Shown here one piece after another: positions 1,526-52,670 of a stretch of DNA of 64,000 nt. The position numbers and the translations under genes are program-made. Source of the stretch: a virus. Below the pieces are notes generated by a model that made no database searches, was not told the DNA's origin, and saw only the letters and a program-made list of their open reading frames with translations. Position 1 is the first letter of the stretch. Every line of letters begins with the position of its first letter. The stretch is from positions 29,232-93,231 of IMG/VR virus record IMGVR_UViG_3300037851_000865. One strand, given 5' to 3'.

Positions 1526-1554
1526 TCTTATCCGGCATAATCGCCTACTATTGC
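1526..1554 (-). promoter_or_regulatory. Candidate phage promoter GCAA-N19-ATAAGA (copy 1)
   Basis: Plus strand TCTTAT 1526-1531, 19 nt, TTGC 1551-1554; 34 nt upstream of the 1491 start. Confidence 0.65.
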
Positions 1555-1593
1555 AGGTGACCTGCGTACCGGTTACGCTCCTGTGGAGGCCTG

Positions 1594-2115
1594 ATGCACA
1601 AACTCAGCGGACTGATTCTTGACGTTGCAGATGACCAGAGGGGAGAAATTCTCCGTTCTGTTTTCCCGACAGCGGCTTCCATGCCCAACTTCGTCAAGAG
1701 TGCCCAATACGTCGGTGAGTCTCAGCGCAGCAGCCTGCCGGACACCATGTTCGCTCTTGTCCTTCGAGACGGAGACGTCAGCCTTCGGAAGTTTGCTTGT
1801 GCCACTTCGGGTGATACAGCCCTGAGTGTCGAGTACTTCATGAAGACTGCCCACAAGCTGCCTGTCGAGGCGCAGAAGGTGGCCGCCAGGAACCTTTGCG
1901 AGGCGTGCTCGTGGTACGATATCGAGCCGCCAGAGGGGTTGCAGAAGGTAGCTCTTGGGTTGGGAACAATGCTCAGCGCGGCCTTCATGGCCCCTGAGGC
2001 CGTGAACCAAGCGAAGGCAATAAAGGGTAACCTACAGATAGCGAAGCAGTCCGGCGGGATGGTAAATCCCGCTCTTGCCGGCGGGGCACAAGCAGCTCCC
2101 CCACAGGTGCAATGA
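1594..2115 (+). CDS. Putative virion (head) protein with K-x-A motifs
   Basis: 173 aa, GGAGG RBS; VKSA, MKTA, QKVA x2; first gene of the operon leading to portal. Confidence 0.7.
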   Translation: MHKLSGLILDVADDQRGEILRSVFPTAASMPNFVKSAQYVGESQRSSLPDTMFALVLRDGDVSLRKFACATSGDTALSVEYFMKTAHKLPVEAQKVAARNLCEACSWYDIEPPEGLQKVALGLGTMLSAAFMAPEAVNQAKAIKGNLQIAKQSGGMVNPALAGGAQAAPPQVQ

Positions 2116-3152
2116 TGGAACAAATCGGTCGTATTCAGTTGTGGCGAAAAATTGGCGGTGATGTTCTCGAGAAGGGAGCGGAGCTGGCCAGCACCTACGA
2201 CATGCCTGCGCAAGAGCCTCTGGACAAGATGCCCAACAAGGGGCAGCCGAAGGCTGTTCTGCGGAAGGTGGCTTCTGCCGGACATCTTGTGCAAACTTCA
2301 TCTGAGCCCGACCATGACTTTGTCTCCTTCTTGGAAGGCAAAGAGAAGGAGCTCGAGGGCGGTGTGCTTGGCGAGCAGAAAGACTCCTTGCCGCAAATGG
2401 CCGCGCTCGCACCACACGTAGACGTGAGCTCGTTTGAGCCGCCGAAGGTGCTCGAAGAGAAGAAGGCCAGCTACTACGCCCTCCCTGACTACGAGATGTA
2501 CCCGCTGGACAGCTACGTCCAGGTCAAGACGGCGAAGCGCTACTTCCTCGACAACTACCGGTACATGGCTCCCGAGGACCGCCATGAGTACTGCGCGAAT
2601 CTGACCAAGCGCGCCTCGGCACTGAACATTGTGACGGACCCTCTCATCGAGAAGTACGGGTCGGCTACGTATGCTCACCCCGATGCTATCGATGCTTGTT
2701 TGGCAGCTCGCCGCGAGTTCCTTCAGGACGAGGACCACATCGGCATTCTGGACAAGCTGGCTTCTGTTCGCCACGCCGTGGACCCCGACGTCTTCGCAGA
2801 GACTCTTGAGCGCTTTGACGTCTCAACAGGCATCGCCAACCAGTACAACGACTCGATGCCCGACGCGTACTTCAGCACCTTCGGGAAGACGGCCGAAGAG
2901 CTTGTCGAGCAGACCAGTCCCGAGACTTCTGTGGTGATTGGTAACGAGTACATCACTCGTCGCCGCCTAGCCGAGTACCTGCAGAACAACGTGAGCACAG
3001 TAGCGCAGCGCTTCGGCGCGGACGTAGCCAAGGAGATGTCCAACAGCCCCAACGACATCTTCGACAGCCTGCCTCGTGACCAGAAGCTGGTCATCATGCG
3101 CATGGCAAACAATGATGATTCCCCAGTCCGTCAGGCTATCCAGACTGCATGA
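2112..3152 (+). CDS. Putative virion (head) protein with K-x-A motifs
   Basis: 346 aa; RKVAS, EKKAS, VKTAK, DKLAS, GKTAE; ATGA-coupled. Confidence 0.75.
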   Translation: MMEQIGRIQLWRKIGGDVLEKGAELASTYDMPAQEPLDKMPNKGQPKAVLRKVASAGHLVQTSSEPDHDFVSFLEGKEKELEGGVLGEQKDSLPQMAALAPHVDVSSFEPPKVLEEKKASYYALPDYEMYPLDSYVQVKTAKRYFLDNYRYMAPEDRHEYCANLTKRASALNIVTDPLIEKYGSATYAHPDAIDACLAARREFLQDEDHIGILDKLASVRHAVDPDVFAETLERFDVSTGIANQYNDSMPDAYFSTFGKTAEELVEQTSPETSVVIGNEYITRRRLAEYLQNNVSTVAQRFGADVAKEMSNSPNDIFDSLPRDQKLVIMRMANNDDSPVRQAIQTA

Positions 3153-4003
3153 CCTTCGACACCGACGTCTTTGACCTTCGCTTCAAGAACGCCGCTGCTG
3201 GTCTGGGTCTCACAAAGACCGGCGCCGACGTCGTTGACGGAGTTGCGCCCGAAGACAACGATACGGTCATTGAAGACGACGATGATGTCACGGACGTTGA
3301 GGTAGAGGAGGAGCAAGACACCCCCCTGCCCGACGTCAATGTGGCGTCTGAAGATGACAAGACACGCCGTGTTCAGGTCAGCAACTTCTTCAGCCATCCG
3401 GATTCTCACCCAATCATCCTGGACCTTCTTCTTCTTCAGAAGTACGGTCCCGAGTGGTTTGATTGGGAGCACGAAACGCTTGAGCTTCGAGTGCAACATG
3501 ACTTCGGTCAGGCCGTCAGCGAGCTGAACATGCACAAGATTCAGGCCGCAAAGACGCTGCACTTCATCGATACGTACTGGAAGGAGTGGCACGTCTTCTG
3601 TTGGGTGACGATGGCCTTCAACGGCCTCTACCCAGACTTCGAAGTGATGCAGGTACCTACAGTCGCTCAGGCCATGGTCTCGGTCGACATCGCAAACCGC
3701 ATCCGCCAGGACGTGCCTTTCAGCCAGGAGCTCAACGATTTTCTCGAGCAGGTGCAGATGCATGACGGCATCTTTGTTCCCATCGAGCCTCTCACGTTCG
3801 TGACCATGGACGACGTGGACGACTACGTGGTGGACGTAGAAGAGGTGAAGAACCGCTGGCCTGACGTGCGCACATCAGGTAGGGCCCCGAAAGGCGACAC
3901 CGTAACGGACGAGCAGCTTCGTAGGATGCTTGACGTGCGAGAAATCCTCGAGGAGTCTCGCCAGGAGCTCAAGGAACAGCTGAGGCTGGTGGCACGTGGC
4001 TGA
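3149..4003 (+). CDS. Hypothetical protein with acidic N-terminal region
   Basis: 284 aa, translationally coupled within the portal operon. Confidence 0.75.
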   Translation: MTFDTDVFDLRFKNAAAGLGLTKTGADVVDGVAPEDNDTVIEDDDDVTDVEVEEEQDTPLPDVNVASEDDKTRRVQVSNFFSHPDSHPIILDLLLLQKYGPEWFDWEHETLELRVQHDFGQAVSELNMHKIQAAKTLHFIDTYWKEWHVFCWVTMAFNGLYPDFEVMQVPTVAQAMVSVDIANRIRQDVPFSQELNDFLEQVQMHDGIFVPIEPLTFVTMDDVDDYVVDVEEVKNRWPDVRTSGRAPKGDTVTDEQLRRMLDVREILEESRQELKEQLRLVARG

Positions 4004-7039: not shown

Positions 7040-7051
7040 ATACCAGTTGTT

Positions 7052-7351: not shown

Positions 7352-7355
7352 GGCT

Positions 7356-7382
7356 AAAAAGAAGGGGCCCTTAGGCCCCTTC
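7356..7382 (-). terminator. Intrinsic terminator for the leftward MoxR/vWA operon
   Basis: GAAGGGGCC-CTTA-GGCCCCTTC stem followed by T5 on the minus strand. Confidence 0.8.
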
Positions 7383-8693
7383 TCACGGAGAATCAAACTC
7401 CTCCACCACGCCATCGTCGTTTGAGCAGATGACGTAGTGGCCCCATTTCGTAGGCCGCATGCGCCACGAGGACGGCACAATGACCCAGATGACCGGGACC
7501 CCAGGAGGCGCTCGTTCAGGCGCAGGCCCTCCACCGTCCGTCACAATCATGATGACGTTCGGCTTGGGGCGCAGCTTCTTCAGGCGCTCGAAGACAGGCC
7601 TAAAGTCGGTACCGCCTCGGCCGTGTGCCTTGATGTTCTTCAAGTCGCGTAAGGAGGTTCGCTGAAAATCTTTGACGATTTGGGTATCGCCTTGCGCCAG
7701 CAACACGTGGTCGATACCCATCTGCGCCAGTACCTCATACGTCACCTGGACACACTTCTCGAGCTCCTTGGTGCCCATGGAGCCTGATGTGTCCCAGAAC
7801 ATCGCAATCTCCGCCTTCTGGTCAATGAGACCAGGTCGAGGAATGCCCAGCAGAATGGAGCGCTTTGACTGTCGAGCCATCGAGAAGTCAGAGCCGCCAG
7901 AAAGAGCAAGGCCAGTAGTACGTCGAACGACGTGCTTCAGGTCTTTCTCCCAATTGCGCTCTTTCTTCTTCTTCGTGCTGTTCAGAAGTTCTTCCACCCA
8001 GCCAGGGGCGGTGCCTCGGCCAGCACCGCCTTGGAAGTGCTTCTTGGCCTCAGACGCTGTGATGCGCTTTGTGTTTTCCTTCTCTGCCTCTGTTCTGCCT
8101 ACTCCAGAAGCGTTGGCTGCTGCTTCTGCCTGCGCGAGGTCACTGCCTTGTCCCCCGTCGTTGCCCGCAACGGAGCCGCATTGACCAGCACAGACATCAG
8201 GCTTCTGTTTGTCCTTGTTCTTCTGCGCATTCTTCATGAGCTCTTGGAAGTAGAACTCCATGGACTCATGTCGCGGCAGGCCGTAGGAACGCGAGAAGAT
8301 TGCCCAAGACGGCAGCTCCCACTCAGCGTCAACGAGGTCATCGTTGATGGGAATGTCTGCCGCCATGTTGGCTATCTGCATGTCTATCGTCGCAAGCTCT
8401 TTGATGCGGTCCATATTTCGAAGGATGTGCATCGCTTCGTGAACAAGACCACCCGCAAGCTTGCGCGGAAGACCGTCTGAATCCAGTGTACTGAACTCAG
8501 GGTCGTCTACGAGCCGCACTGGGTCGTATAGAAAAATCATCGTGTCGGTGACAGCGATGGTCCCAAGATTCGGAACCGGCACAGGCACTAAGCTGTAAAT
8601 CAGCCGAGTGAAGTAGGGCCCCTTCTTCTTGACGTAAATACGGGCCCTCGCCAGGAGGTCGAGGGCCTTTCGTTCGTATTCTTCGGGGTTCAT
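7383..8693 (-). CDS. vWA-domain protein with N-terminal HExxH metallopeptidase-like domain (DUF2201-type)
   Basis: HEAMH motif; MIDAS-like DTSGSM; GRGGTDFRP; VTDG; adjacent to AAA+ ATPase. Confidence 0.85.
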   Translation of the reverse strand: MNPEEYERKALDLLARARIYVKKKGPYFTRLIYSLVPVPVPNLGTIAVTDTMIFLYDPVRLVDDPEFSTLDSDGLPRKLAGGLVHEAMHILRNMDRIKELATIDMQIANMAADIPINDDLVDAEWELPSWAIFSRSYGLPRHESMEFYFQELMKNAQKNKDKQKPDVCAGQCGSVAGNDGGQGSDLAQAEAAANASGVGRTEAEKENTKRITASEAKKHFQGGAGRGTAPGWVEELLNSTKKKKERNWEKDLKHVVRRTTGLALSGGSDFSMARQSKRSILLGIPRPGLIDQKAEIAMFWDTSGSMGTKELEKCVQVTYEVLAQMGIDHVLLAQGDTQIVKDFQRTSLRDLKNIKAHGRGGTDFRPVFERLKKLRPKPNVIMIVTDGGGPAPERAPPGVPVIWVIVPSSWRMRPTKWGHYVICSNDDGVVEEFDSP

Positions 8694-9889
8694 GTTGTTG
8701 CGTACTTCGCCATGACTCCAATCGTCTTCATGGCTTTCTTGGCAGCTTCAGCAGCTGCCTTGTTGGGGTTGTTGTGGTTTAGCTGCGCGACAGCAAGGTC
8801 GTGAGCAATGGGGAGGACGATGTCCTTCATACCTGCTCCGAACGTGTCGAGGACAATGCTCCATGCGTTTTCTGCAAGCGCTTGTCGCGTAACCACATCC
8901 GGGTGCGAGCAAAGCCAAGAACTCATAGAGTTCAGGGCCGTCATTGTGATGTCGAGACGCTTTGAGTCGGCAATCCAGCCATTGCGCAGCATCTCTTCCG
9001 GGTGCGGAAGGTCCGCTTTCTGGCACCACTCCACCCACTCGACTTCATGCTTTGAGCCGATGCAGCCAAAGAGCAGTTCGTTCTCGAGCTCCTTTGGCAG
9101 GTTCAGGCAGCGCACAGTCGTAATAGCGCAGGTACCGAAGTACCAGGTTCGCGGGGAAGGCCATGCCCCGCTACCTTCCTCGCTATCTGGGGTTGGCTGG
9201 TTGTGCAGCATACTCGCTCCTTGTGCTTGCACGAAACCGACCACCAACGCACGGACCTGACCCCAGTGGTGGTGCCAGTTGTCTTTCACCATCTGCTCCG
9301 CCTGCTGGAAGCTGGGAAGACTGCTCATGGAGCGTCCCATCATCCAATCTCCCCAGGTACCTACCTCAGGCTTTCCGGCATCGATGTGCACGAAGCGGTT
9401 TGCTAGGGCTGCCTCAAGGGCGAACCCGCCGGCGGCGTACTCGGGAGGGTTCATACCTGCCAGAACACGGACCTTGTTAGGCAGCTGGTGGTCTCCTACT
9501 TTTCGTTCGTCCACTAGCCCCAAGCAGGGACCCTGGACAGCGGGGCGGGCCGTCGTGAGCTCGTCGATGAAGAGTACGCCCTGTCCGGCCGCCATTAGAG
9601 CTCGAGCCTGCGGCAGGATGCACTCCAGAACGACTCCGTCCGGCGTGGGTACGATGGCACCGCCGAAGTCTTCAGGCTGCTTGTGGCTGGGGAACACCTT
9701 CTGGAAGGGCAGTCCCAAAGAACGTACCGCAGCCCCTACTCGCTGGGACTTTCCGATACCGGAGAGTCCGACAATGTTTAGAGGCAGCCCCCACCGGCAG
9801 GTGGGGGAGTTCGGTCCCATCGGGTCGAAGGGGTCGACCTGAGGTACTGAGAGTGCTGCGAGGATTTTCTGCTCGAGTGTGACAGCCAT
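8690..9889 (-). CDS. MoxR-like AAA+ ATPase
   Basis: Walker A GLSGIGKS, Walker B LFIDE, ALANRF arginine finger, PSPRTW; start moved to the ATG at 9889 (TAATG overlap). Confidence 0.9.
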   Translation of the reverse strand: MAVTLEQKILAALSVPQVDPFDPMGPNSPTCRWGLPLNIVGLSGIGKSQRVGAAVRSLGLPFQKVFPSHKQPEDFGGAIVPTPDGVVLECILPQARALMAAGQGVLFIDELTTARPAVQGPCLGLVDERKVGDHQLPNKVRVLAGMNPPEYAAGGFALEAALANRFVHIDAGKPEVGTWGDWMMGRSMSSLPSFQQAEQMVKDNWHHHWGQVRALVVGFVQAQGASMLHNQPTPDSEEGSGAWPSPRTWYFGTCAITTVRCLNLPKELENELLFGCIGSKHEVEWVEWCQKADLPHPEEMLRNGWIADSKRLDITMTALNSMSSWLCSHPDVVTRQALAENAWSIVLDTFGAGMKDIVLPIAHDLAVAQLNHNNPNKAAAEAAKKAMKTIGVMAKYATT

Positions 9890-11120: not shown

Positions 11121-11231
11121 TCAACTCTCTTTTTCTTCCTCGGTGTCGTAGTCACTACCGCCGTACATCTCATCGATGTCAGCTTCCATCTGTGCCCCAG
11201 AATTGTTGTACTCTTCGTCTTCTTCGCCCAT
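11121..11231 (-). CDS. Small highly acidic peptide (36 aa)
   Basis: MGEEDEEYNNSGAQMEADIDEMYGGSDYDTEEEKES; AGAAAGG RBS; first ORF downstream of promoter motif copy 2. Confidence 0.55.
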   Translation of the reverse strand: MGEEDEEYNNSGAQMEADIDEMYGGSDYDTEEEKES

Positions 11232-11266
11232 GGCGGCCTTTCTGAAGCAGCTTCCTGCTCCACTTT

Positions 11267-11295
11267 TCTTATTCCGCGATATCTGCAGTACTTGC
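11267..11295 (-). promoter_or_regulatory. Candidate phage promoter GCAA-N19-ATAAGA (copy 2)
   Basis: Plus strand TCTTAT 11267-11272, 19 nt, TTGC 11292-11295. Confidence 0.65.
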
Positions 11296-11336
11296 GGGGC
11301 ATTCCTGGGCCGGGGTAGGCTACAATAGGCGGGCGC

Positions 11337-14300
11337 ATGGCACATCTGGACCACAACGAGGCTTTCGAGGAGTTCAAGAACCGAACCCTGGAAGGAATTA
11401 AGGCCAACTTCCCCATCGAGGGGCGAGACCGTTCTCTCGTCCTGAAGGGGTTGGAGGTTGCAGATGCGGCGAACGCATCTGATGACCTCGACGAGCAGCA
11501 CAAGGCGAAGGTAGAAGGGCGCACGTTCAGTCGTCCTATCTATGCGACCGTCTCTGTCGTGGATAAGCAGACGGGTAAAGAACAAACAGAGCGCATGAAG
11601 ATTGGTGAGCTCCCTGTGCTCACCCGCCGGTACAGCTACATCGTTGGCGGGCAGGAGTACCAGGTAGACAATCAGTGGCAGCTGAAGCCCGGCATCTACA
11701 CGCAGCGCAAAGCTGACGGCTCGCTGAAGTCGGAGTTCAACATTCAGGGAAAGAAGTCTTTCAACCTGAAGTTCGAACCTGAGACCAAGCAGTTTCTCAT
11801 GGAGCGCGGCAGTTCCAAGACAATCCCCGCCTATCCCATCCTGAAGACGATGGGTATCGACGACGAAACTCTTGAGCGTCAGTGGGGGAAGGACATTCTT
11901 CAGGCGAACAGGGACTCACGCAACTCCGCTACCGCTCTGTCGCGTTTCTACAAGGCCGACAAGAAGCGCATGCCCGCGGACACCACAACTGCTTCGACGT
12001 ACGTACGCCAGACGCTGCTCGGTTCTCAGGTACGCGCGGACGCCGTAGAGAAAACGCTCGGGCGCAACACGTCGACCGTAGACGGTGACATTCTTCTGCG
12101 GGCTACCAAGCGCATGCTGGACATTCAGGGAGGTGCTCCTGAGGATGACCGCGACAGTCTTGTGTTCAAAGACCTGCGCTCTGTTGGTGACTACGCGTAT
12201 GACAAGCTGACAGACTGGCGCACACAGAGCATGATTCGCACGAAGATTCAGCGGCAGCTCAACAGCGCAAAGGCCACCTCTCCTCGAGACATCCTCCGTA
12301 CGGCTTCTTTTGGACAGCCCATCATGGCGACGTTCAAGAAGAACTCAGCCGCGCGCACCGCCGACCAAATCAATCCGGTTGAGATGCTTGCGTCTTCGAT
12401 GCAGACCACTGTGATGGGCCCTGGTGGTATTCAGTCGGAGCACGGCATCACCCCTGAGGTGAAGTACATCAATCCGTCGCACTTTGGGTTCCTCGACCCA
12501 CTTCACACACCAGAGGGTGGAAAGACCGGCGTAACCCTTCATTTGCCTATGGGTGTGAAGAAGGTCGGAAAAGAGCCCCGAATTCCGGTATATAATTTGA
12601 AAACGGGCAAGAAAGAACTTATCGGTCCGGCGGCATTTATGTCGTCGTCGGTTGCGCTCCCTGACCAGATGAAGTGGGACGACAAGGGCCGACCTGTGCC
12701 TGTCGCTGCCAAAATCAAAGTCTCTTCAAAGGACAATGAGATTGAAGAGGTCTCGTCCAAAGACGTGCAGTACGCGATGTATCACCCGTCGCAGGCGTTC
12801 TCTTTGACCTCGAACCTAATCCCCTTCATGGGCAACACCTCGGGTAACCGCGCCAGCTACGCGACTCACCACATTGAGCAGGCTATCTCGCTAGCGGACC
12901 GGGATGTGCCGCTTATTCAGGCGGGTACTGGCGTAGGCAGAGGCGGCATCAAGAGCTTCGAAGAGTTTGTTGGACGTAACTCTGCACATACAACTCCTGT
13001 TGCAGGTGTTGTTGTGAAGGCGGACAAGCAGCACGGTATTGTGGTCAAAGACGACAAAGGGCAGACCCACAAGGTTCCGCTGTACAACAACTTCCCGCTG
13101 AACGATGCCAAGGCGGTTCTGGACTCCACGCCCATTGTAAAGCCAGGTGACCACGTTCGTGCGGGGCAGGTGGTGGGCGATACAAACTTCACAAAGGGCG
13201 GCAGTCTCGCGCTCGGGAAGAATCTTCGAGTCGGCTACATCCCCTACAAGGGCTACAACTTTGAAGACGGCGTGGTCATCAGCGAGTCGGCCGCGGACGC
13301 TCTCAAGAGCGTGCACATGCACAAGCCGAGCATGAAGCTGCAGCCTACGGACACGACCGATGTCAAGAAGTTCACAGCGCAACATCCTGAGGCTTTCAGG
13401 AAAGAACAGCTACAGAAGGTAGGTGCCGACGGCATTGTTCAGGTAGGTCAGCGCATCAACCCTGGTGACCCGCTTGTGTTGGCGATGAGGCCGCTCAACA
13501 TCAACGACCAGTCTGGTATCGCGCGTGTGCGTAAGAGCTTGTCTGGTCAGCAGACTGACGCGTCTTTGCGCTGGGACAAGGACTACGCCGGCGAAGTTGT
13601 AGGCGTGCACCAGAACAAGAAGGGCGAGGTCACTGTCCACGTAAAGACCATCGAGCCCATGACGGTCGGCGATAAAATCACAGGTCGCTACGGCAACAAG
13701 GGTATCGTCACAAAGGTCATCCCTGACGCTGAAATGCCTCGAACAAAGGACGGACAGCCCATTCAGGTGGCTCTCAATCCCGCTGGCATCCCAGGCCGTA
13801 TGAACGTTGGTCAGGTGCTTGAAACGGCCCTGTCCAAGGTCGCGCGCAAGACCGGGCAGCCCATCATCGTGAACAACTTCGAGTACGGAGTTGACCAACT
13901 TGAGAAGGCCAAAGAAGAACTGAAGAAGCATGGTCTCGAGGACAAGGAAGAGCTCATTGACCCGAAGACCGGCTTGTCTCTCGGCAAAGTGCTCGTCGGC
14001 GAGCAGCACATGCTCAAGCTTCAGCATCAGGTAGACAAGAAGGTCTCGGTCAGAAGCGGTATGGCGCTGCGTGGTGAAGAGGCTGAAGGTTACGACAACA
14101 ACCTCATCCCTAAGGGTGGCGGCAAGGCCGGTGCGCAGTCGATGGGTAACCTCGGCATGAACGTCCTGCTTGCTCACGGAGCCACCGCGAACATCCGCGA
14201 GATGCAGACCTGGAAGTCTCAGGGAGAGGACCCCGCGCCCGAGCACAAGCGCTGGAGGTCTCAACACAACGACGTGTGGAACGCCATTCAGACTGGCGCT

Positions 14301-17300
14301 CCCCTTCCTGCACCCAAGCCTACGTTCGCCTTCCAGAAGTTCACCGACATGCTCAAGGCGTCGGGCATCAACGTAGAGAAGAAGGGCAACAAGATTCAGC
14401 TCACGCCTCTCACCGACAAAGAAATCGAAGCTATGTCTTCGGGCGAGCTGTCTAACCCAAGCCGCCTCACGTACGCGAAGACGGACAAAGATGGGCAGCT
14501 GAAGCCCATCAAGGGTGGCTTGTTCGATGAGGCCAAGACTGGTGGCGTTCACGGGAAGAAGTGGGCTCACTTCAGCCTGGCGGAGCCCATGCCGAATCCC
14601 ATCTTTGAGGAACCTATCAAGAAGGTTCTGGGGATGAACAAGAACCAGTTCGCCGATGTGGTGAACGGGGACAAGGCTATCGACCCCAAGACGGGGCAGG
14701 TTGTGGCTCTCGGAAAAGGGTTGTCTGGTGGTGCCGGCATCGCTGCTGCTCTGAAGAACGTTGATGTGGCCAAGGAGCTCGAGCTTGCAAAGAAAGAGCT
14801 TGAGGCCGTGAAGATTTCTCCTGACTTTGCTCACGGAGCAAATACGCAGAAGCTCGACACGGCCCTCAAGAGGGTGAAGTACTTGAGTGTTCTGCAGGAC
14901 AAGGGCATTCGTGCTGACGAGGCTTACGTGCTCACGAAGCTTCCGGTCATTCCTCCAGCGATGCGCCAGCCGAGCATCATGAACGACGGCAATGTTCGCT
15001 GGGAGGACATCAACGGCCTCTACAAGAGCTTCGCCGAGGTCAACGATAAGCTCAAGGAGCTCAAGGGCTACGAGAGTATCGGCATCGGGGATGCGGACAT
15101 GAAGGTGCCGCGCCAGGGCATGTACGACGGACTCCGCGCACTGGTTGGCGTTGGGCAAAGCGCCGCGGAGCGTGATGAGGACAAGCCGAAGGGTATCCTT
15201 CGTATGATTCACGGAAGTATCCCGAAGGAGGGTTACTTCCAGAAGACGCTCATGTCGCGCAAGCAGGACATGACGATGCGCTCTACCATCGTGCCTGAGC
15301 CTGCCATGAACCTGGACGATGTCGGTGTTCCAGCTGCCAAGGCACTCACGTTGTTCCGTCCGTTCGTAATCAAGAAGATGACTGACATGGGCGTGGCGCA
15401 GACCCCACTTCAGGCACAGGAGATGCTTCGAGACAAGAATGCCATCAAGAATCAAGGCATCTTCAAGGCCCTTGAGGCCGTCACGGCAGAGCGGCCTCTA
15501 CTGATGAAGCGAGACCCCGCGCTGCACATGCACAGTATCCAGGCCTTCAACGCACGACCGGTTAAAGGCAACGCCATCAAGATTCACCCCCTCGTCGTGG
15601 GCGGGTACAACGCAGACTTCGACGGCGACACAATGAGCATGTACGTGCCTATCAGCAACGAGGCCGTAGAGGAGGCGCGCGGCATGATGCCGAGTCGCAA
15701 CCTGTTCAACGCGGCCTCGGGGCATGTGGCCCATGCTCCTTCTCTCGAGAGCTCGCTCGGTCTGTACAAGATGACACAAGTCCAGGGCTCGGGAAGCAAG
15801 TCTTTCAAGAGTGCGGGAGATGCCATGAAGGCAGTACAAGCAGGCAAGCTCAGCATCGACGAGCTTGCTAACATCAGCGGGTACGGGAAGACTACTGCTG
15901 GCCGTGTTCTTCTTGCGGACGCTCTCCCTAAGTCGATGCAGGACAAGATGCTGCATGACCATTCCTTTGTGATGAACAAGAAGGGTGTGAATCAGCTGTA
16001 TGGGGACCTTGCAAAGAACCACCCGGATAGTTTTGCTGATGCAGCAAATCGTCTGAAGGATTACGGCTTTGATGCCTCGTACGGCCAGGTGCGTCTCAAG
16101 CACCCGACTATACACGTGGGTCAGGGCGCTATTGATGCAGCAGAGCAGGGAAAGTTTGCTGTGCTTCCTATTGGGTCGCACAGCCTCGGGCTCGATGACC
16201 TCGCCCCGGACAAGGCCGTTCGTGACAAGATTGTCAATGCGACCCAGCGCCGTGTCGACATGGTGAACCGCTCCAATCTGACGAAGAGCCAGAAGGAGGC
16301 TCGTGCGGTGGAAGAGTGGACCAAGGCTACTGCCGAGATGCAGAAGGCGCACGTCGAGTCCGCCAAGAAGAAGCCTGACAACTTGTTCAAGATGTACGAC
16401 GCAGGCATTAAGCCGGGCATGTCTCAGTACCAGCAGCTGAAGCTTGCCCCGATGCTGCTCGAAGACGCGTCTGGTCGAACCATCCCCATGCCTGTCACGA
16501 AGTCGTACTCTGAAGGTCTCGATATGGCGGGTTACTGGATTCAGTCCAGCGGTGCTCGTAAGGGCTCTATCCAGAAGGTGCAGGAGGTCCAGGACCCTGG
16601 CTACTTCTCGAAGCAGCTCATCAACACGGCCATGAACCTGCAGATTCGCGACGAGGACTGCGGCACGCAGCGCGGCGTTGGTCTTTCTGTCTCAGATAAG
16701 GATGTCTATGACCGAGAACTTGCGTCCGACCTGAAGGTAAAAGGACGTACGTTTGCGAAGGGTACTGTTCTTTCTCCTGATGTGGTCGGGCAGATTCGCA
16801 AGCTCGACAAGGGTGCACAGGTCGTTGTCCGTTCCTCTTTGAAATGCGAGCACGGCAAGGGTCTATGCCAGCACTGTGCAGGTATCAGCCCCACCGGGAA
16901 GTATTACGACGTCGGTACTAACCTCGGTATCTTGTCGGCGCAGTCTCTTGGTGAGCGCTCTGTTCAGCTCGCTTTGAAGGCATTCCACTCTGGTGGTGTG
17001 AAGTCTACCGGCGGGGCTGGTGTGCTCGGCGCTTTTGACCGCACAAAGCAGCTCACGGCACTGCCGAAGAAGATTCCTGACGCAGCCTCCTTGGCTATGA
17101 CCTCGGGTAAGATTGAGAAGGTGCAGGAGGACCGGACCGGCACCAACATCTGGATTGCTGGGCAGAAGCACTTTGTACCCAAGGACCGCGCAGGCCGTAC
17201 CTTGACGACGACGCTTCCTGGCGTGGCGCCTCCTGGCTGGGCTCCACCGAAGGTGGGTGCGTTCGTAGAGGCGGGACAGTCCCTCAGCGACCCGACACGT

Positions 17301-17816
17301 TCTTTCGTGAACCCGCACGACCTATACAAGGCGACGAGGAACATCGAAAAGGTTCAGAACTTTCTCACGAACGAGCTTCACGGCATCTACAAGGATGAAG
17401 GTGTTCGACGGCAGCACATCGAGACGGTTGTGAAGGCACTGAGCAACACTTCTCGCGTACGTAGCCCTGGAGATGCTCAGAACATCCTTCGAGGAGAGTA
17501 TCAGCCTACGTCTCAGATGCGGGCCCTGAACGCAGAGCTCACAAAGGCTGGCAAGCGCCCTGTGAGCTATTCCCCTATTTTGAAGGGTGTCGATGTGGCG
17601 CCCTTGACGGTTCACGATGACTGGATGGCGAAGCTGAATTACGCGCAGCTCACCAAGACGTTGACGGAAGCCGCGGCAGAAGGTTCTATCTCCGACCTGC
17701 ATGGTATGCACCCGGTTCCAGGAGCAGCCTACGGGGCAGAGTTCGGTATCGCGAAGAAACACAAAGACCCCTTCGCGCCACCCCATATCAAGAACCTTCC
17801 AACGTGGTCGTACTGA
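11337..17816 (+). CDS. rpoBC: Fused beta-beta' multisubunit-type DNA-directed RNA polymerase (2159 aa)
   Basis: Beta motifs GYNFEDG, GDKITGRYGNKG, LNPAGIPGRMNVGQ; beta' motifs LPVIPP, catalytic NADFDGD (15609-15629), bridge helix GARKG...GY, CEHGKGLCQHC, trigger loop AQSLGE...AFHSGG. Confidence 0.97.
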   Translation: MAHLDHNEAFEEFKNRTLEGIKANFPIEGRDRSLVLKGLEVADAANASDDLDEQHKAKVEGRTFSRPIYATVSVVDKQTGKEQTERMKIGELPVLTRRYSYIVGGQEYQVDNQWQLKPGIYTQRKADGSLKSEFNIQGKKSFNLKFEPETKQFLMERGSSKTIPAYPILKTMGIDDETLERQWGKDILQANRDSRNSATALSRFYKADKKRMPADTTTASTYVRQTLLGSQVRADAVEKTLGRNTSTVDGDILLRATKRMLDIQGGAPEDDRDSLVFKDLRSVGDYAYDKLTDWRTQSMIRTKIQRQLNSAKATSPRDILRTASFGQPIMATFKKNSAARTADQINPVEMLASSMQTTVMGPGGIQSEHGITPEVKYINPSHFGFLDPLHTPEGGKTGVTLHLPMGVKKVGKEPRIPVYNLKTGKKELIGPAAFMSSSVALPDQMKWDDKGRPVPVAAKIKVSSKDNEIEEVSSKDVQYAMYHPSQAFSLTSNLIPFMGNTSGNRASYATHHIEQAISLADRDVPLIQAGTGVGRGGIKSFEEFVGRNSAHTTPVAGVVVKADKQHGIVVKDDKGQTHKVPLYNNFPLNDAKAVLDSTPIVKPGDHVRAGQVVGDTNFTKGGSLALGKNLRVGYIPYKGYNFEDGVVISESAADALKSVHMHKPSMKLQPTDTTDVKKFTAQHPEAFRKEQLQKVGADGIVQVGQRINPGDPLVLAMRPLNINDQSGIARVRKSLSGQQTDASLRWDKDYAGEVVGVHQNKKGEVTVHVKTIEPMTVGDKITGRYGNKGIVTKVIPDAEMPRTKDGQPIQVALNPAGIPGRMNVGQVLETALSKVARKTGQPIIVNNFEYGVDQLEKAKEELKKHGLEDKEELIDPKTGLSLGKVLVGEQHMLKLQHQVDKKVSVRSGMALRGEEAEGYDNNLIPKGGGKAGAQSMGNLGMNVLLAHGATANIREMQTWKSQGEDPAPEHKRWRSQHNDVWNAIQTGAPLPAPKPTFAFQKFTDMLKASGINVEKKGNKIQLTPLTDKEIEAMSSGELSNPSRLTYAKTDKDGQLKPIKGGLFDEAKTGGVHGKKWAHFSLAEPMPNPIFEEPIKKVLGMNKNQFADVVNGDKAIDPKTGQVVALGKGLSGGAGIAAALKNVDVAKELELAKKELEAVKISPDFAHGANTQKLDTALKRVKYLSVLQDKGIRADEAYVLTKLPVIPPAMRQPSIMNDGNVRWEDINGLYKSFAEVNDKLKELKGYESIGIGDADMKVPRQGMYDGLRALVGVGQSAAERDEDKPKGILRMIHGSIPKEGYFQKTLMSRKQDMTMRSTIVPEPAMNLDDVGVPAAKALTLFRPFVIKKMTDMGVAQTPLQAQEMLRDKNAIKNQGIFKALEAVTAERPLLMKRDPALHMHSIQAFNARPVKGNAIKIHPLVVGGYNADFDGDTMSMYVPISNEAVEEARGMMPSRNLFNAASGHVAHAPSLESSLGLYKMTQVQGSGSKSFKSAGDAMKAVQAGKLSIDELANISGYGKTTAGRVLLADALPKSMQDKMLHDHSFVMNKKGVNQLYGDLAKNHPDSFADAANRLKDYGFDASYGQVRLKHPTIHVGQGAIDAAEQGKFAVLPIGSHSLGLDDLAPDKAVRDKIVNATQRRVDMVNRSNLTKSQKEARAVEEWTKATAEMQKAHVESAKKKPDNLFKMYDAGIKPGMSQYQQLKLAPMLLEDASGRTIPMPVTKSYSEGLDMAGYWIQSSGARKGSIQKVQEVQDPGYFSKQLINTAMNLQIRDEDCGTQRGVGLSVSDKDVYDRELASDLKVKGRTFAKGTVLSPDVVGQIRKLDKGAQVVVRSSLKCEHGKGLCQHCAGISPTGKYYDVGTNLGILSAQSLGERSVQLALKAFHSGGVKSTGGAGVLGAFDRTKQLTALPKKIPDAASLAMTSGKIEKVQEDRTGTNIWIAGQKHFVPKDRAGRTLTTTLPGVAPPGWAPPKVGAFVEAGQSLSDPTRSFVNPHDLYKATRNIEKVQNFLTNELHGIYKDEGVRRQHIETVVKALSNTSRVRSPGDAQNILRGEYQPTSQMRALNAELTKAGKRPVSYSPILKGVDVAPLTVHDDWMAKLNYAQLTKTLTEAAAEGSISDLHGMHPVPGAAYGAEFGIAKKHKDPFAPPHIKNLPTWSY

Positions 17817-25454: not shown

Positions 25455-25465
25455 TTCAGGGCTAG

Positions 25466-25498
25466 AGAAAAAGCAACCGATGACTCGGTTACTTTTCT
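25466..25498. terminator. Bidirectional intrinsic terminator (stem perfect on the minus strand)
   Basis: Minus strand AAGTAACCGA-GTCA-TCGGTTGCTT-TTT; on plus the stem has a C-A mismatch and T4. Confidence 0.75.
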
Positions 25499-25710
25499 CC
25501 CACAGGTCACACTTATGCTTGAGAGTTTTGCCTACTGTGCCTCAAGCAAGTCCACCTTTAGTCTCGCGGTGGTTCGGGATGCAGTTACGTCGCAGACTCG
25601 CTGCCGCATCTCAGGAGGCGCTTTTCTCGGGGTTCTGGTTTTACGTGCGTGTGGGGCTCTTAGGTCCCACAGCTACGATATTCTCCAGGCTTGACCGAGG
25701 TGTTTCCTCG
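25466..25710 (-). ncRNA. Candidate structured small RNA (~245 nt)
   Basis: Lies between promoter motif copy 3 and the terminator; five visible hairpins; no convincing ORF. Confidence 0.4.
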
Positions 25711-25714
25711 ATAT

Positions 25715-25743
25715 TCTTATACCATGTTTACTGGGGTTTTTGC
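25715..25743 (-). promoter_or_regulatory. Candidate phage promoter GCAA-N19-ATAAGA (copy 3)
   Basis: Plus strand TCTTAT 25715-25720, 19 nt, TTGC 25740-25743; also reads as extended -10 TGGTATAAG. Confidence 0.65.
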
Positions 25744-25753: not shown

Positions 25754-26506
25754 CTACTGCTGAGAGCGCATGCCCTTGTGTTTTGAAGCAGCTATGGCCA
25801 GCATTGTGATGCGATGATTCTCTCCCGCGAAGTCCGCTTCAAAGGCGCGCATGGCCGCGCGCTTTCCGTACCTCTGAATGTGATACATGAAGATAGCGTT
25901 ACGCAGAGTCTTCCTGGCAGCATTGAGCCGCCGATAGGCAAGAACCTCCGCAGGGTTATACGCCATGTCTTCAGCGTTCTGGCACCTCAGCAGGTGGGTG
26001 ACGAGGTCGTTGTATACACGCCACGGTTCTTCCTTGTCGTTGGTCACCGACGCGACCCGAAGAAAGTACTGCTCACACAGAGAGCCAAAGATGTCTGCCC
26101 AGTAAGTGACGCGTTCTTCGCCGTTGATGGTTTTTGCCAGTGCCTGGTAGGCCTCTTCGTGCAGGGCTTGAATGCTCTCCGCGTCGAGCTGGTATGCTGG
26201 AGAGACATGCATACCGAGCAGCCTCTCGAGAGCTTCGACTCTGCGCTGTGCGACCCTCGCGGCCGCCCAGGCCTGCTCAGCTGTTTCGGTGGTGGCCAGC
26301 AAGGAAATTTCCCGCTCACGGACCTCCCGCAGGGCCGCAATCTCCTCAGGGTCGAACAGCGGGGCGTTGAAAGGCCCGGTTCTTCCTACGATTCGGAGGG
26401 TGCCTTTGCGCATCATCTTCTCGACGCTACGCTCGGACACATCCAGAATTTCCGCCACTTCCTCCTTGGGGATACCTGATACACTTCCCATGACGCTGTT
26501 TTGCAT
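25754..26506 (-). CDS. DNA-binding protein with N-terminal excisionase/MerR-type HTH
   Basis: KEEVAEILDVSERSVEKMMRKGTL...LFDPEEIAAL; divergent from the head operon, starts only 35 nt apart. Confidence 0.75.
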   Translation of the reverse strand: MQNSVMGSVSGIPKEEVAEILDVSERSVEKMMRKGTLRIVGRTGPFNAPLFDPEEIAALREVREREISLLATTETAEQAWAAARVAQRRVEALERLLGMHVSPAYQLDAESIQALHEEAYQALAKTINGEERVTYWADIFGSLCEQYFLRVASVTNDKEEPWRVYNDLVTHLLRCQNAEDMAYNPAEVLAYRRLNAARKTLRNAIFMYHIQRYGKRAAMRAFEADFAGENHRITMLAIAASKHKGMRSQQ

Positions 26507-26541
26507 GGTATTTCTTTGAAGCACAACTGAGAGGCCTTCAG

Positions 26542-28023
26542 ATGCACGACCTACCATCTATTCTGTTGGAGCAGCAGTCACATGCTCCACCCAAATCCGG
26601 TGAAGAGCTCGAGGTTTTGGGGAAGTGTGCTGCGAAGAAGTACATCGACGGCACCTGCAAGAGTCTGAATGAAGCTGTGGTCGATACCATCAAACATGCA
26701 GGGTTATCGCCCGAGCAGGTTCGACGGGTCATCGAGTTCACAAACACAGACGCGTTCCTGACGGAGCACAAGAAGGAAGGCTCGAGCCGCTACGTCGACT
26801 TCCACGGTGGGCCTGCTGACCCCGGTGAGGTTCTTAGGGACCTCAACGATGGTGGTGGCGGAACGGTGTTCGACCGTGGTCTGGCCGACTACAGCCTTCC
26901 TCCCGGGACCAAGACGGCGCGGGCGCACACGCTGGGCGGGCAGGAGAAGACGGCAGCCGCCTCTGAGTTCGGCCCCACCCTTGGGGACATCGCGGGCGAC
27001 ATGCACGGCAAGGTCATGCGCTCCTACAAGCTCCCTCCCTATCAGGGCTACGACCCGTTCGGCCAAGGAGAGGCAAAGCACAAGGTCAAGATGCTGGGTG
27101 CGTTGGGCTTCAAGGGTGTGAAGGTCGGCAGTGCTGAGCCCATCCCGTTCCTCGACAATGACCCCGCAGAAGAGGCGCTTAAGCAGGCTTTTGCCTCTGA
27201 AGAAGAGGCGCTGCCCTTCGCTGACCCTCTGGCTCCCGCCATCGCCACGAGCGACAAGCTCGCCGGCGCAGTTGACCATCTGACCGCAGAGCTCACCGAG
27301 CTCGAGGGTGCTTTCCACGACAGCCTCGACGACGTGTACCAGCACGTGAAGCAGGCGAGCTTGGAAGGCATCCCGCTCGGGCACGTTCTGACGGCCTGGC
27401 AGTCAGTTGTTCCTGACGCCGACTATGTGAAGGTAGCTTTCTCCCACATCAGCCCTCGCCTGGTCCGTGATGGGGTGTTCGCCGGCTTCGATGACGTCGG
27501 TGACTCTCTCCAGAAGACTGCGCACGTTGGTCACGTGAACTCCAGCCATCCTCTGGTCGGCTCCATGGCCCTCTTCTGCATGACGCTCGACAAGCTTGCA
27601 GAGACACGCGCTGCTCGCGCGGAGCTCATTCAGGCTCGAGACGCTATGCAGGACTTCACGCAGAAGACCGCGAGTGTGTTCAAGCGGGTCGCTGATAGTG
27701 GAGGCGTCCTCCCAAAAGTAACAAGGGCGTTCCGGTCTGCGGGTGAGTCCGCAGGTAAAGGCACCAAGACTCTAGGAGAAGTTCTCCTCGGTACTGGTTC
27801 TCGGGGCGCCCAGACCGCCGCCAACGCCGTCGAAAAGGGCATCACATACACCCCGCACGCCGCTGCTACTCTGGCAGGACTTCTCGCCGTCGCTGACATG
27901 CGCGAGCGCGCAAGGTACAGCCCCGCTTTTCAGACCGCGAAGAACTTCGCGCTAGCACGCGTTCCCTACACCCACCAGAACATGGTCTACCAAAATCAGT
28001 TGGCCATGGAAGGCCAGTACTGA
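26542..28023 (+). CDS. Putative internal head protein with K-x-A motifs and C-terminal amphipathic/hydrophobic segment
   Basis: 493 aa; TKTAR, EKTAA, VKQAS, VKVAF, QKTAH, QKTAS. Confidence 0.8.
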   Translation: MHDLPSILLEQQSHAPPKSGEELEVLGKCAAKKYIDGTCKSLNEAVVDTIKHAGLSPEQVRRVIEFTNTDAFLTEHKKEGSSRYVDFHGGPADPGEVLRDLNDGGGGTVFDRGLADYSLPPGTKTARAHTLGGQEKTAAASEFGPTLGDIAGDMHGKVMRSYKLPPYQGYDPFGQGEAKHKVKMLGALGFKGVKVGSAEPIPFLDNDPAEEALKQAFASEEEALPFADPLAPAIATSDKLAGAVDHLTAELTELEGAFHDSLDDVYQHVKQASLEGIPLGHVLTAWQSVVPDADYVKVAFSHISPRLVRDGVFAGFDDVGDSLQKTAHVGHVNSSHPLVGSMALFCMTLDKLAETRAARAELIQARDAMQDFTQKTASVFKRVADSGGVLPKVTRAFRSAGESAGKGTKTLGEVLLGTGSRGAQTAANAVEKGITYTPHAAATLAGLLAVADMRERARYSPAFQTAKNFALARVPYTHQNMVYQNQLAMEGQY

Positions 28024-47238: not shown

Positions 47239-47250
47239 TAGGAGCACGAC

Positions 47251-47643: not shown

Positions 47644-47646
47644 AGC

Positions 47647-47982: not shown

Positions 47983-47986
47983 ACCA

Positions 47987-49753: not shown

Positions 49754-49754
49754 A

Positions 49755-50351
49755 CTACTTCTGCCACCACATTGTAGAGGGCGCGTCCATCGGGATGTCA
49801 GGCACGTTCGTTAGCGGGACGTGCTTGCCGTCTTCTCGGTATTCGAGCTCAACATCATCATCGCTCATCAGTTCCTGGTGTGTCAGGTGCTCCACCGCTG
49901 AGTGTGGCTGCGAGTCGAGCTTGTTGTTGTCGAATTGCTTCTGGGAGTGCCTCGGTGATGCGTACTCGATTGTCGCCAGGTCCAGGAGTTGTAGTTCCTC
50001 TGGACTCAAATCCGACAGAAGACGAGTTCCATGTGACAGCTGCTGAATCAGTTCGGCTGTTGCGGCGTCGAACCTTCTTGGGTCCTCCAAGTATTCCCGT
50101 AACAAGATTTTGGGGTCGCCAACTAGGGCCGTGAACAAGCTCTGCTTTCCGAACAGACTCCCGCTGGGAGCGGAGGTCTGCTGCTGAATCTCCTTTGCAT
50201 CTTGCTGCGCCATTTCGAAGAATGTCGGCAAGGTCAGAGCCGTCGGTGGCTGCAATGGCTGCAAGTCTTTCAGGGCTAAAAAATCTGGGTACCCTGCTTC
50301 GAGCATCGTTGGCGACAAGTTCACTGTAGTATTCGTCGATTTCGGCTGCAT
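49755..50351 (-). CDS. Hypothetical protein (overlaps next ORF in another frame)
   Basis: 198 aa, AGAAGG RBS, natural-looking C-terminal half. Confidence 0.6.
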   Translation of the reverse strand: MQPKSTNTTVNLSPTMLEAGYPDFLALKDLQPLQPPTALTLPTFFEMAQQDAKEIQQQTSAPSGSLFGKQSLFTALVGDPKILLREYLEDPRRFDAATAELIQQLSHGTRLLSDLSPEELQLLDLATIEYASPRHSQKQFDNNKLDSQPHSAVEHLTHQELMSDDDVELEYREDGKHVPLTNVPDIPMDAPSTMWWQK

Positions 50352-50538: not shown

Positions 50539-50553
50539 GCCGGAAAAGTACTA

Positions 50554-50811
50554 CTACACGAATGGTAGTGCCAGCTGCTTCTGCTCACGCTGCCAGCGGG
50601 CGGGAAGAAACCCACCCTTTACAAGCCACTCGTCCAGGTCTTCCAGGCCGAAGACAAGGCACGTCAGTGCTTGTTGAAGGTCAGTGTTTCCTTTCTTCGT
50701 CTCAGACACTATCGCGTCTAGCAGCGCCGCCTCTGGGTCAGGCGCCTCCATCACAAGCTTCAACGTGTCTTTGGCGGCGAGCAGTTGCGTAAGGGTTGCG
50801 TTAGGGTCCAT
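50554..50811 (-). CDS. Small phage hypothetical protein (MDPNATL...WLxKGGFLP..W type)
   Basis: 85 aa, AAGGAG RBS. Confidence 0.75.
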   Translation of the reverse strand: MDPNATLTQLLAAKDTLKLVMEAPDPEAALLDAIVSETKKGNTDLQQALTCLVFGLEDLDEWLVKGGFLPARWQREQKQLALPFV

Positions 50812-51043
50812 GCTTTCTCCTTTGTCCTTGTAGTTTGTATTTCAGCGCATCTGCCGCAGCGCAGCCTGTGGCAGCTTCTTCGTCTTCGTCGTCGAAAGGC
50901 TCGTGCGCGAATCCGTCGCGGCGGTACTTAGGCGAACTTCGCCAATACGTGCTATCATCCAAGGCAGTGATGAGGGTCTCGAACTCTGCCTCAGAGACGT
51001 AGAGCTTGATGTCCTTTTTGGTCTGTTTGTCTTCACTGGTCAT
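50801..51043 (-). CDS. Small hypothetical protein
   Basis: 80 aa from ATG 51043 with GAGG RBS, just downstream of promoter motif copy 4. Confidence 0.7.
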   Translation of the reverse strand: MTSEDKQTKKDIKLYVSEAEFETLITALDDSTYWRSSPKYRRDGFAHEPFDDEDEEAATGCAAADALKYKLQGQRRKHGP

Positions 51044-51057
51044 GCGGTCCTCACTTC

Positions 51058-51086
51058 TCTTATCGCTCAAAGTGCGCGAGAATTGT
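51058..51086 (-). promoter_or_regulatory. Candidate phage promoter ACAA-N19-ATAAGA (copy 4)
   Basis: Plus strand TCTTAT 51058-51063, 19 nt, TTGT 51083-51086. Confidence 0.65.
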
Positions 51087-51117
51087 GCTCCGCATCGTTT
51101 TCTAAGGAGAAACACAA

Positions 51118-51810: not shown

Positions 51811-51829
51811 TTGCTGTAGTCTGTGACGC

Positions 51830-52609
51830 ATGTCACTAGAGAGCATCAAGAAAGGCGCCCGAGGGGAAGCAGTTGCCGACTGGCAGTACTTCCTTCTCGG
51901 GCGTGGCATTTACAAGGGCGAGGTTCACGGGGAGTTTGACGATGCGACGCATCGAGCTACTGTGGCCTTTCAGAAAAACAACAATCTCAGCCCTGTTGAT
52001 GGCTGGGTAGGGACGAGTACCTATGCGGTTGCGCTGGGTCTCGGCTTCGACCCGCTCGTCTACACGTTAGAGAACTCGAAGGACTTTCCTGGTCCGCCCG
52101 ACTTCAAGCCGTTGACGGTAGCAGAGAAGCATAAACTGTTCGGTACCATTCAGTTCGTCGACGCGCCTACGAAGAGCAATCCAGAGGCGGTGCGAATCTC
52201 AAACGGCTGGGAGAAGAACATCACGCAAGTCAGCATTCCTCAGCTGGTGGGCCTCGAGGGTACAGGGCGCGCCAAGACCTTCTCGTTTCACAAAAAGATT
52301 GCTGAGCAGGTGCAGGCGCTATTCCAGGCCTGGGACGACGCAGGTCTGAAGAAGTACCTGCTCACCTACGCAGGTGACTGGGCGCCCCGGTATGTCAGAG
52401 GGTCCAGAACTACACTGAGCTCTCACGCTTGGGGGACGGCTTTCGATATCAATGCGGCCTGGAATATGCGTGGGAGCCGCGCAGCCGCCAGAGGAACAGA
52501 AGGGTCTGTGCGTGAGCTTGTGTTGATTGCCTATGAGCACGGGTTCTATTGGGGAGGGTACTTCCAGCAAACAGATGGCATGCATTTCGAGGCTACAAAG
52601 ATTTTGTAG
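51830..52609 (+). CDS. Endolysin: peptidoglycan-binding domain plus M15-family zinc peptidase
   Basis: IKKGARGEAVADWQ...GEFDDAT...FQKNNNL..DGWVG; SSHAWGTAFDIN; DGMHFE. Confidence 0.9.
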   Translation: MSLESIKKGARGEAVADWQYFLLGRGIYKGEVHGEFDDATHRATVAFQKNNNLSPVDGWVGTSTYAVALGLGFDPLVYTLENSKDFPGPPDFKPLTVAEKHKLFGTIQFVDAPTKSNPEAVRISNGWEKNITQVSIPQLVGLEGTGRAKTFSFHKKIAEQVQALFQAWDDAGLKKYLLTYAGDWAPRYVRGSRTTLSSHAWGTAFDINAAWNMRGSRAAARGTEGSVRELVLIAYEHGFYWGGYFQQTDGMHFEATKIL

Positions 52610-52614
52610 CTTTT
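52592..52614 (+). terminator. Intrinsic terminator overlapping the endolysin stop
   Basis: GCTACAAA-GAT-TTTGTAGC-TTTT. Confidence 0.65.
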
Positions 52615-52618
52615 CCTC

Positions 52619-52670
52619 TTGACCTGTGCTGTTGTATTTCTACAACTACAGTCTGGAACAGGGAACAAGA
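52619..52670 (+). promoter_or_regulatory. Overlapping sigma70-like promoter (TTGACC-N16-TACAAC) and phage-motif variant ACAA-N19-ACAAGA (copy 5)
   Basis: TTGACC 52619-24, TACAAC 52641-46; ACAA 52642-45, ACAAGA 52665-70. Confidence 0.5.

Follow-up and report, generated by a model that had tools for sequence, protein, structure and literature searches.

The multisubunit RNA polymerases of phages phiKZ and AR9 are split and have no canonical sigma factor, and their promoters are short, lie near -10 and lack a -35 block. These enzymes read phage-specific promoters, the virion-borne one serving the early genes (PMC7598289, PMC5312081); according to a comparative study, jumbo phages that encode a polymerase lack a sigma factor (PMC7824862). 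In SPO1 (gp28, gp33/34), T4 (gp55) and phiEco32/7-11 (gp36), none of which has a polymerase of its own, a phage sigma factor imposes a non-host promoter sequence and a temporal class. Here we analyse a 64,000-nucleotide stretch (the window) of the virus record IMGVR_UViG_3300037851_000865. The window comprises bases 29232-93231 of the whole viral contig, G000, which is 175,761 bp long with 56.9% GC. An earlier note on the window had pointed to a promoter-like motif, RCAA-N19-ATAAGA, in front of non-structural genes.

As in phiKZ and AR9, this phage encodes a relative of bacterial polymerase and appears to use a phage-specific promoter. Unlike in those phages, the polymerase consists of a single chain, the genome also encodes a true sigma70-family factor and the promoter is bipartite with a -35 block, and the motif therefore falls outside the phiKZ/AR9 type. 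As in SPO1, T4 and phiEco32/7-11, a phage sigma factor would determine the promoter sequence; unlike in those phages, it co-occurs with a fused beta-beta' polymerase. We regard the motif as very probably a promoter and, on balance, as a phage-specific one read through the phage sigma factor.

The motif in the window, the genome and relatives

Four exact copies of RCAA-N19-ATAAGA were found in the window, where 0.06 would be expected by chance and 100 shuffles gave at most one. All four lie on the minus strand between called genes, at 1526-1554, 11267-11295, 25715-25743 and 51058-51086, exactly where the earlier note had placed them. The other ATAAGA or TCTTAT words in the window have no RCAA partner, again in agreement with the note, although its list had missed one at 29146 (+). 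Over the whole contig, 12 of the 36 ATAAGA words have an RCAA partner at exactly 19 nt, 11 of these exact copies being on the minus strand, and no sites were added when spacers of 18-20 nt were allowed. The note had proposed enrichment in the rest of the genome and in relatives as a check; eight of the 12 copies lie outside the window, and the motif recurs in relatives.

Starting from the 12 exact copies, an iterated weight matrix converged on 25 sites in G000, with scores of 14.5 to 42.6 bits, compared with 0-2 sites in shuffled genomes. The matrix consensus is GCAA-N16-GG(C/G)ATAAGAA-N3-TG(A/G). The distance from GCAA to GG(C/G)ATAAGA is a constant 16 bp, and in the alignment of family sites the spacer columns hold less than 0.35 bits. 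When the first A of ATAAGA is numbered -11, G occupies -7 at 20 of the 25 sites and at 48 of 55 family sites. A G six bases after the hexamer is present at 23 of the 25 sites, and a T before this position at 20. In the window this G is found in all five copies listed by the note, as it had claimed, with T before it in four of them and C in copy 3. The note had described the motif as a -35 hexamer, a 17-bp spacer and a -10 hexamer that differ from TTGACA/TATAAT. The two-block arrangement stands, but the -10 element is better placed one base to the left (S-12 A-11 T-10 A-9 A-8 G-7), with GG as an extended -10.

The positions of the sites were compared with the called genes. Of the 25, 17 are wholly intergenic, and the remainder overlap gene ends or small gene calls. 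Most end 6-50 nt 5' of the start codon of a co-oriented gene, and a Shine-Dalgarno sequence usually intervenes. Nineteen are on the minus strand and six on the plus strand, the latter with weaker -10 blocks. In an unbiased comparison of intergenic with intragenic DNA, GGCATAAG was the top intergenic-enriched word, level with TTTAGCC. Two conserved blocks, a constant distance apart and separated by a free spacer, a co-oriented position in front of genes and a sigma factor encoded by the same genome are the features of a sigma70-family bipartite promoter. Such promoters start transcription 6-8 nt downstream of the -10 block, and the conserved T-G step of the motif stands at a matching distance. 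At G000:156005-156049 two copies on opposite strands face away from each other; their upstream blocks overlap (GCAAAAGTATTGT), and they would drive divergent genes.

The predicted promoters in the window can be delimited from GCAA to the putative start. Copy 1 (1520-1554, minus strand; 30.3 bits) has GCAA at 1554-1551, GG at 1534-1533, ATAAGA at 1531-1526 and a predicted start at G 1520. Copy 2 (11261-11295, minus; 35.2 bits) would start at 11261 and is directed away from the polymerase gene. Copy 3 (25709-25743, minus; 39.2 bits), with a predicted start at 25709, opens a transcription unit containing no open reading frame (ORF). Copy 4 (51052-51086, minus; 24.4 bits) has ACAA as its upstream block and a predicted start at 51052, 9 nt 5' of an ATG at 51043.

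The one-mismatch plus-strand copy that the note had reported at 52642-52670 does exist (ACAA-N19-ACAAGA-N5-G, 52642-52676 with the G), preceding a 256-amino-acid (aa) gene at 52713-53483, which the note called H1-like. With the note's pattern, 2.9 matches with up to one mismatch are expected in the window by chance, and two one-mismatch matches were seen. The number is thus within chance. With 11.3 bits this copy ranks 26th in the genome, directly below the 25 clear sites, and it has C instead of T-10, a base present at 25 of 25 sites. It retains GG, TG and the position before a gene, and is overlapped by a TTGACC-N16-TACAAC pair at 52619-52646. Its membership of the motif class is doubtful.

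Relatives were represented by 67 IMG/VR loci with a polymerase 38-62% identical, on contigs of 44-64% GC, in which 1.45 Mb were scanned. The matrix found 65 sites, of which every one is on the opposite strand to the polymerase gene and 46 fall within the 8.8% of the DNA that has no long ORFs. Most relatives retain the copy that diverges from the polymerase gene, in the place and orientation of copy 2. Five complete or near-complete genomes gave 7-15 matches each to GGNATAAGN5TG, and a reversed-pattern control gave 0-1.

Two cultured phages, Arash (Salmonella) and D69 (Vibrio), are distant relatives with polymerases about 30% identical. Arash has 20 matches, 19 of them on one strand, with the consensus GGTATAAG(A/T)A-N3-TGTAA and a weaker CAAT block upstream. 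The strict GGNATAAGN5TG pattern is not enriched in D69 (two matches, compared with three in the control). The top intergenic word in an unbiased scan of D69 was a variant, GTTATAAGTAA, and when G-T was allowed at -14/-13, 21 sites were found, 20 on one strand, compared with 0-3 in random genomes. These sites have GT rather than GG at -14/-13, and CAA(C/T)A upstream at the same distance. A clade-specific change of the -35 block, for matching against changes in sigma region 4, was sought and none was found, GCAA or CAA being kept at a constant distance in every clade examined. The signal therefore follows the phage lineage through widely differing hosts. Its conservation in phages of Salmonella, Vibrio and freshwater hosts argues for a phage-encoded reader.

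The phage sigma factor and the putative core enzyme

A sigma70-family factor of group-3 type, 268 aa in length, was identified by homology, profile and AlphaFold model at G000:112456-113262 on the plus strand (83225-84031 in window numbering, beyond the window end). The gene was found through a weak region-4 match and the annotation of Arash. The protein is homologous to Arash gp10 (E = 1.7e-11) and has 36 metagenome homologues, several of them labelled as sigma subunits or carrying Sigma70_r3/r4. Its profile matches PDB chains of SigA, RpoS and FliA over regions 2.3 to 4, with a best E of 5e-8. The AlphaFold model has a pLDDT (predicted local distance difference test) of 83.6, and its structural matches are sigma factors only, led by SigD, WhiG, SigB, sigmaS and sigmaA. 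The gene is single-copy in G000, in five of five relatives, in Arash and in D69, and the polymerase co-occurs with it in every genome checked. No second sigma factor was found in G000; the only other match was a weak one to an N-terminal helix-turn-helix (HTH) in the protein encoded at 25754-26557. Region 2.3 of the phage sigma factor lacks a tryptophan pair, and the residue at the position of E. coli Y430 is an invariant histidine.

Alternative sigma factors are typically self-regulated. A copy of the motif at G000:112414-112442 (30.8 bits) precedes the sigma gene on the same strand, and the same arrangement is seen in the closest relative, G001, and again in Arash, whose sole plus-strand copy this is. 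This provides the best link between the phage sigma factor and the motif. From this position and from co-occurrence, we infer that the motif belongs to this sigma factor. The earlier suggestion of a promoter read by a phage-encoded factor is thus supported by enrichment in the genome and the family, by orientation, by conservation across hosts, by the lack of resemblance to TTGACA/TATAAT and by the encoded sigma factor, and we consider it quite likely that the motif is read through that protein.

The presumed core enzyme is the single-chain beta-beta' RNA polymerase of 2159 aa encoded at 11337-17816 on the plus strand. It contains the Pfam domains Rpb2_6, Rpb2_3, Rpb1_1, Rpb1_2 and Rpb1_5, and the sequence NADFDGD at residues 1425-1431; no second polymerase gene was found in G000. 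Mass spectrometry of Arash virions detected the beta subunit, with the highest spectra count of any protein, together with beta' and sigma (PMC10585845).

A complex of the sigma factor with polymerase residues 1005-1460 was modelled and scored 0.77, compared with 0.00 for the best of three controls; the calibration mark for this score is reached by 58 of 80 solved complexes and by 2 of 110 mismatched pairs. The runs shared at least 48% of contacts, with a partner pLDDT of at least 69. The modelled interface joins the beta' clamp helices (residues 1219-1264) to sigma region 2 and is the canonical one. Because many sigma-beta' complexes have already been solved, the model shows that the docking surface is kept, rather than that the two proteins bind.

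In the mechanism we propose, GCAA (-34 to -31) would serve as the target of sigma region 4, and a free 16-bp spacer follows it. GG at -14/-13, with C, G or T at -12, would form an extended -10 read by regions 3.0/2.4, and melting would be nucleated by region 2 at A-11 T-10 A-9 A-8 G-7 A-6. Initiation is predicted at the conserved G (or A) after T, six bases past ATAAGA (T-1 G+1). The specificity factor would be the 268-aa sigma, with the single-chain polymerase as the likeliest core, and the holoenzyme may be delivered together with the DNA, since polymerase and sigma were found in Arash virions. Its targets would be leftward pre-replicative units encoding helicases, a recombinase, dCMP deaminase, MoxR/VWA proteins, an HNH protein, small ORFs and one non-coding RNA, and these genes would be expressed as early or middle genes, before replication. 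The promoters would drive the sigma gene as well. G-7 and the lack of TTGACA would keep the host holoenzyme away. We lean slightly towards the phage polymerase, rather than that of the host, as the core. Only tentatively do we suggest a self-contained, virion-packed holoenzyme, made of the single-chain core and the group-3-like sigma, that is injected and starts infection without host RNA polymerase.

A literature search found no description of the promoters of this lineage or of a fused polymerase paired with a sigma factor, and the word 'promoter' is absent from the Arash paper (PMC10585845). A sigma-type bipartite promoter is a known kind of signal; the sequence, the lineage and the probable enzyme are new. 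If the proposal is correct, this phage would provide the first case of a multisubunit phage polymerase that works with a canonical sigma factor and a -35/-10 promoter, and the sigma gene under its own promoter would form a positive loop. The lineage is widespread, consists of phages of about 180 kb and includes at least 67 metagenomic contigs as well as the cultured Arash and D69. In these largely unannotated genomes the motif could serve as an annotation rule for transcription units and temporal classes. Together, a fused core, a true sigma and a defined promoter would make up a compact and orthogonal transcription system of two proteins whose DNA target is known. It would also offer a natural case of a group-3-type sigma reading G at -7 and GG at -14/-13.

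Alternative readings and known promoter classes

The strongest alternative is that the phage sigma factor redirects the host core to the motif, while the fused polymerase reads other signals. A candidate for such a signal is the -10-only promoter-like element GGCTACAAT at 11318-11326 on the plus strand, which ends 10 nt before the ATG of the polymerase gene and is not followed by a Shine-Dalgarno sequence. The element lies outside the motif class and forms its counterpart. In about 30 of 41 distinct relatives the corresponding pattern GGnTAnnnT (at -17 to -14) is conserved, ending 8-11 nt in front of the polymerase ATG. Its place against the ATG without a Shine-Dalgarno sequence implies, as far as the sequence goes, a leaderless or near-leaderless polymerase mRNA. 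TACGCT at 1574-1579 (+) resembles an element of this class.

The existence of this second promoter-like class favours a host core at the motif, as do the precedents of SPO1 gp28, T4 gp55 and phiEco32 gp36. To our knowledge, all characterised phage sigma factors use the host core (for 7-11/phiEco32, PMC8948821). Set against this are the co-occurrence of sigma and polymerase in every genome checked, the detection of both proteins in Arash particles and the retention of the motif across phages of Salmonella, Vibrio and freshwater bacteria. The modelled docking of sigma on the phage beta' clamp helices (0.77 compared with 0.00) also speaks for the phage core. We therefore judge redirection of the host core to be unlikely.

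Several observations weigh against the reading preferred here. Neither the polymerase gene nor the 38-kb virion module has a copy of the motif, a TAnnnT element being present instead; the virion module would thus use another recognition mode, and a second mode or a second enzyme must then exist. The sigma factor is assigned to the motif class, rather than to the TAnnnT class, by inference. No strict motif was found within 1.5 kb of the sigma gene in four distant relatives. The complex model may owe its score to memory of solved sigma-beta' complexes, and it would also be compatible with binding of the sigma factor to the host core, in addition or instead. The authors of the Arash study caution that abundant enzymes may co-purify with particles (PMC10585845). 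A search of public sequencing runs for this DNA returned freshwater metagenome DNA runs and no RNA runs.

The distribution of target genes also bears on this reading. Outside the window the motif precedes a dCMP deaminase gene, many small unknown genes and one collagen/tail-fibre-like gene, and the last of these, which looks structural, counts against it. No coding-strand copy was found in the 38-kb plus-strand block that begins with the polymerase gene and encodes a terminase, a major head protein and a sheath-like protein. Restriction to non-structural genes, as the note had it, is thus mostly correct, but is broken by the collagen/tail-fibre-like gene and by the six weaker plus-strand copies.

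The motif might instead be read by host RNA polymerase with a host sigma factor, either the housekeeping one or an alternative such as the flagellar sigma28; its geometry is that of sigma70-family promoters. The consensus of the sigma28 class (FliA/SigD/WhiG, group 3) is TAAA-N15-GCCGATAA, in the register (-36)TCTAAAG(-30) and (-15)GCCGATAA(-8); A-11 is a flipped base, and the base at -7 shows neither conservation nor flipping (PMC12784957). The motif has the same register, with an upstream block at -34 to -31 and a downstream block at -15 to -8. Seven positions agree with sigma28 promoters (A-32, A-31, G/C-12, A-11, T-10, A-9 and A-8), so that the ATAA core and the AA at -32/-31 speak for such a reader. 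Both kinds of promoter also have a two-base extended -10, and neither needs T-7. The phage sigma factor, like the readers of the sigma28 class, has three domains, and its best structural matches include SigD, WhiG and FliA, although Foldseek did not clearly separate sigma28 relatives from SigA, SigB and RpoS. The motif differs from sigma28 promoters in having GC for TA at -34/-33 and GG at -14/-13, where sigma28 has GC at -15/-14 and C-13 (GC/CCG). It differs also in its conserved G-7 A-6 and T-1 G+1, and in a reader that would be phage-encoded and paired with a phage polymerase. Despite the shared geometry and the seven agreeing positions, it lies outside the sigma28 consensus. By this comparison the motif would work like a group-3 promoter without being a sigma28 promoter.

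Like housekeeping sigma70 promoters (TTGACA-N17-TATAAT), the motif has two blocks about 17 bp apart. The -10 of Arash and D69 reads TATAAG, which agrees with TATAAT at five of six bases, and G-14 recalls the TG of extended -10 promoters. Unlike sigma70 promoters, it lacks TTGACA and mostly has G where sigma70 needs T-7. In a scan for the sigma70 consensus (9 or more of 12 positions matching, A-11 and T-7 required) no motif site passed, and no sigma70-type match was found at copy 3. Canonical sigma70 matches are depleted in G000, with 22 compared with 40-63 in random genomes of the same composition (about 51 expected), and only one of them is intergenic; in D69, and in the first 50 kb of Arash, the depletion is at most weak, and it is not used as evidence for the family as a whole. 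Taken together with the identical motif in phages of unrelated hosts whose GC content ranges from 44 to 64%, and with the sigma factor that the phage itself encodes, these differences make a host sigma factor a very improbable reader.

A hairpin promoter of the kind used by the N4 virion polymerase was also considered and rejected: stems of at least 5 bp occur in 16% of G000 spacers, 5% of family spacers and 3% of shuffles. A conserved hairpin at the transcript 5' end was not significant in G000 or Arash; the D69 set was too small to judge.

That the motif is no promoter at all but an operator for a phage regulator, such as the HTH protein whose gene adjoins copy 3, or an RNA signal (a processing site or 5' leader) is very unlikely: a few spacers do contain inverted repeats, but family-wide such hairpins are found in 5% of spacers compared with 3% of shuffles. 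The motif is no palindrome, and its properties are those of a promoter: it pairs two short blocks, a constant distance apart, with a free spacer between them, has a conserved pyrimidine-purine step at the expected start distance, is strictly co-oriented with the downstream genes and stands upstream of the Shine-Dalgarno sequence and ATG.

Downstream genes, a candidate RNA and other features

Judged by position, copy 1 would drive a minus-strand replication-recombination cluster with a 209-aa ORF at 862-1491 and an SF2 helicase; a DnaB-like helicase and a UvsX-like recombinase lie further along this strand. Copy 2 would drive, on the same strand, a 36-aa acidic ORF (11121-11231) and two unknown ORFs, followed by genes for a MoxR-like AAA ATPase (8690-9889) and a VWA/DUF2201 protein (7383-8693). 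The genes downstream of copy 4, also on the minus strand, are an 80-aa ORF, an 85-aa HNH-like ORF (50554-50811) and a 198-aa ORF (49755-50351).

Copy 3 is followed by a candidate non-coding RNA of 248 nt (25462-25709, minus strand), which has no ORF and ends in the 3' hairpin AACCGAGTCATCGGTT and then GCTTTTTCTCTAGCC. The region folds with -85 kcal/mol (z -3.78), and no Rfam family was found for it. The absence of an ORF, the good fold and the terminal hairpin with its T-run together suggest that copy 3 and the 248 nt form a complete promoter-RNA-terminator unit. The neighbouring gene at 25754-26557 (-) encodes a 267-aa protein with an N-terminal HTH_17 domain that has a weak likeness to sigma region 4. 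This gene ends 11 nt before copy 3, and its start overlaps a divergent gene start at 26542.

The word TTTAGCC is a terminator tail, intergenic in 11 of its 17 copies (p = 3e-8). Terminators in G000 consist of a GC hairpin and a T-run followed by AGC(C), as in GCTTTTTCTCTAGCC and TTCTTTTTAGCC, and a TTTTTAG tail is enriched in Vibrio phage D69 as well. This ending may be a lineage-specific termination signal.

In relatives L028, L043, L044, L059 and L074 the polymerase gene spans 1-2.6 kb of extra DNA, and in Vibrio phages D181 and D148 a homing endonuclease is annotated under the polymerase match. The extra DNA in the relatives' polymerase genes probably represents introns or inteins.

A near-identity search among phage records gave no match, nor did Rfam and tRNA scans of the window. 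Elsewhere in the contig, a transfer-messenger RNA was found at G000:156918-157293 (+), with the tag ANDNASAVLALAS, and four tRNAs (Ile-AAT, Glu-CTC, Gln-CTG and Thr-TGT) are located at G000:135375-135567 and 157802-158074.

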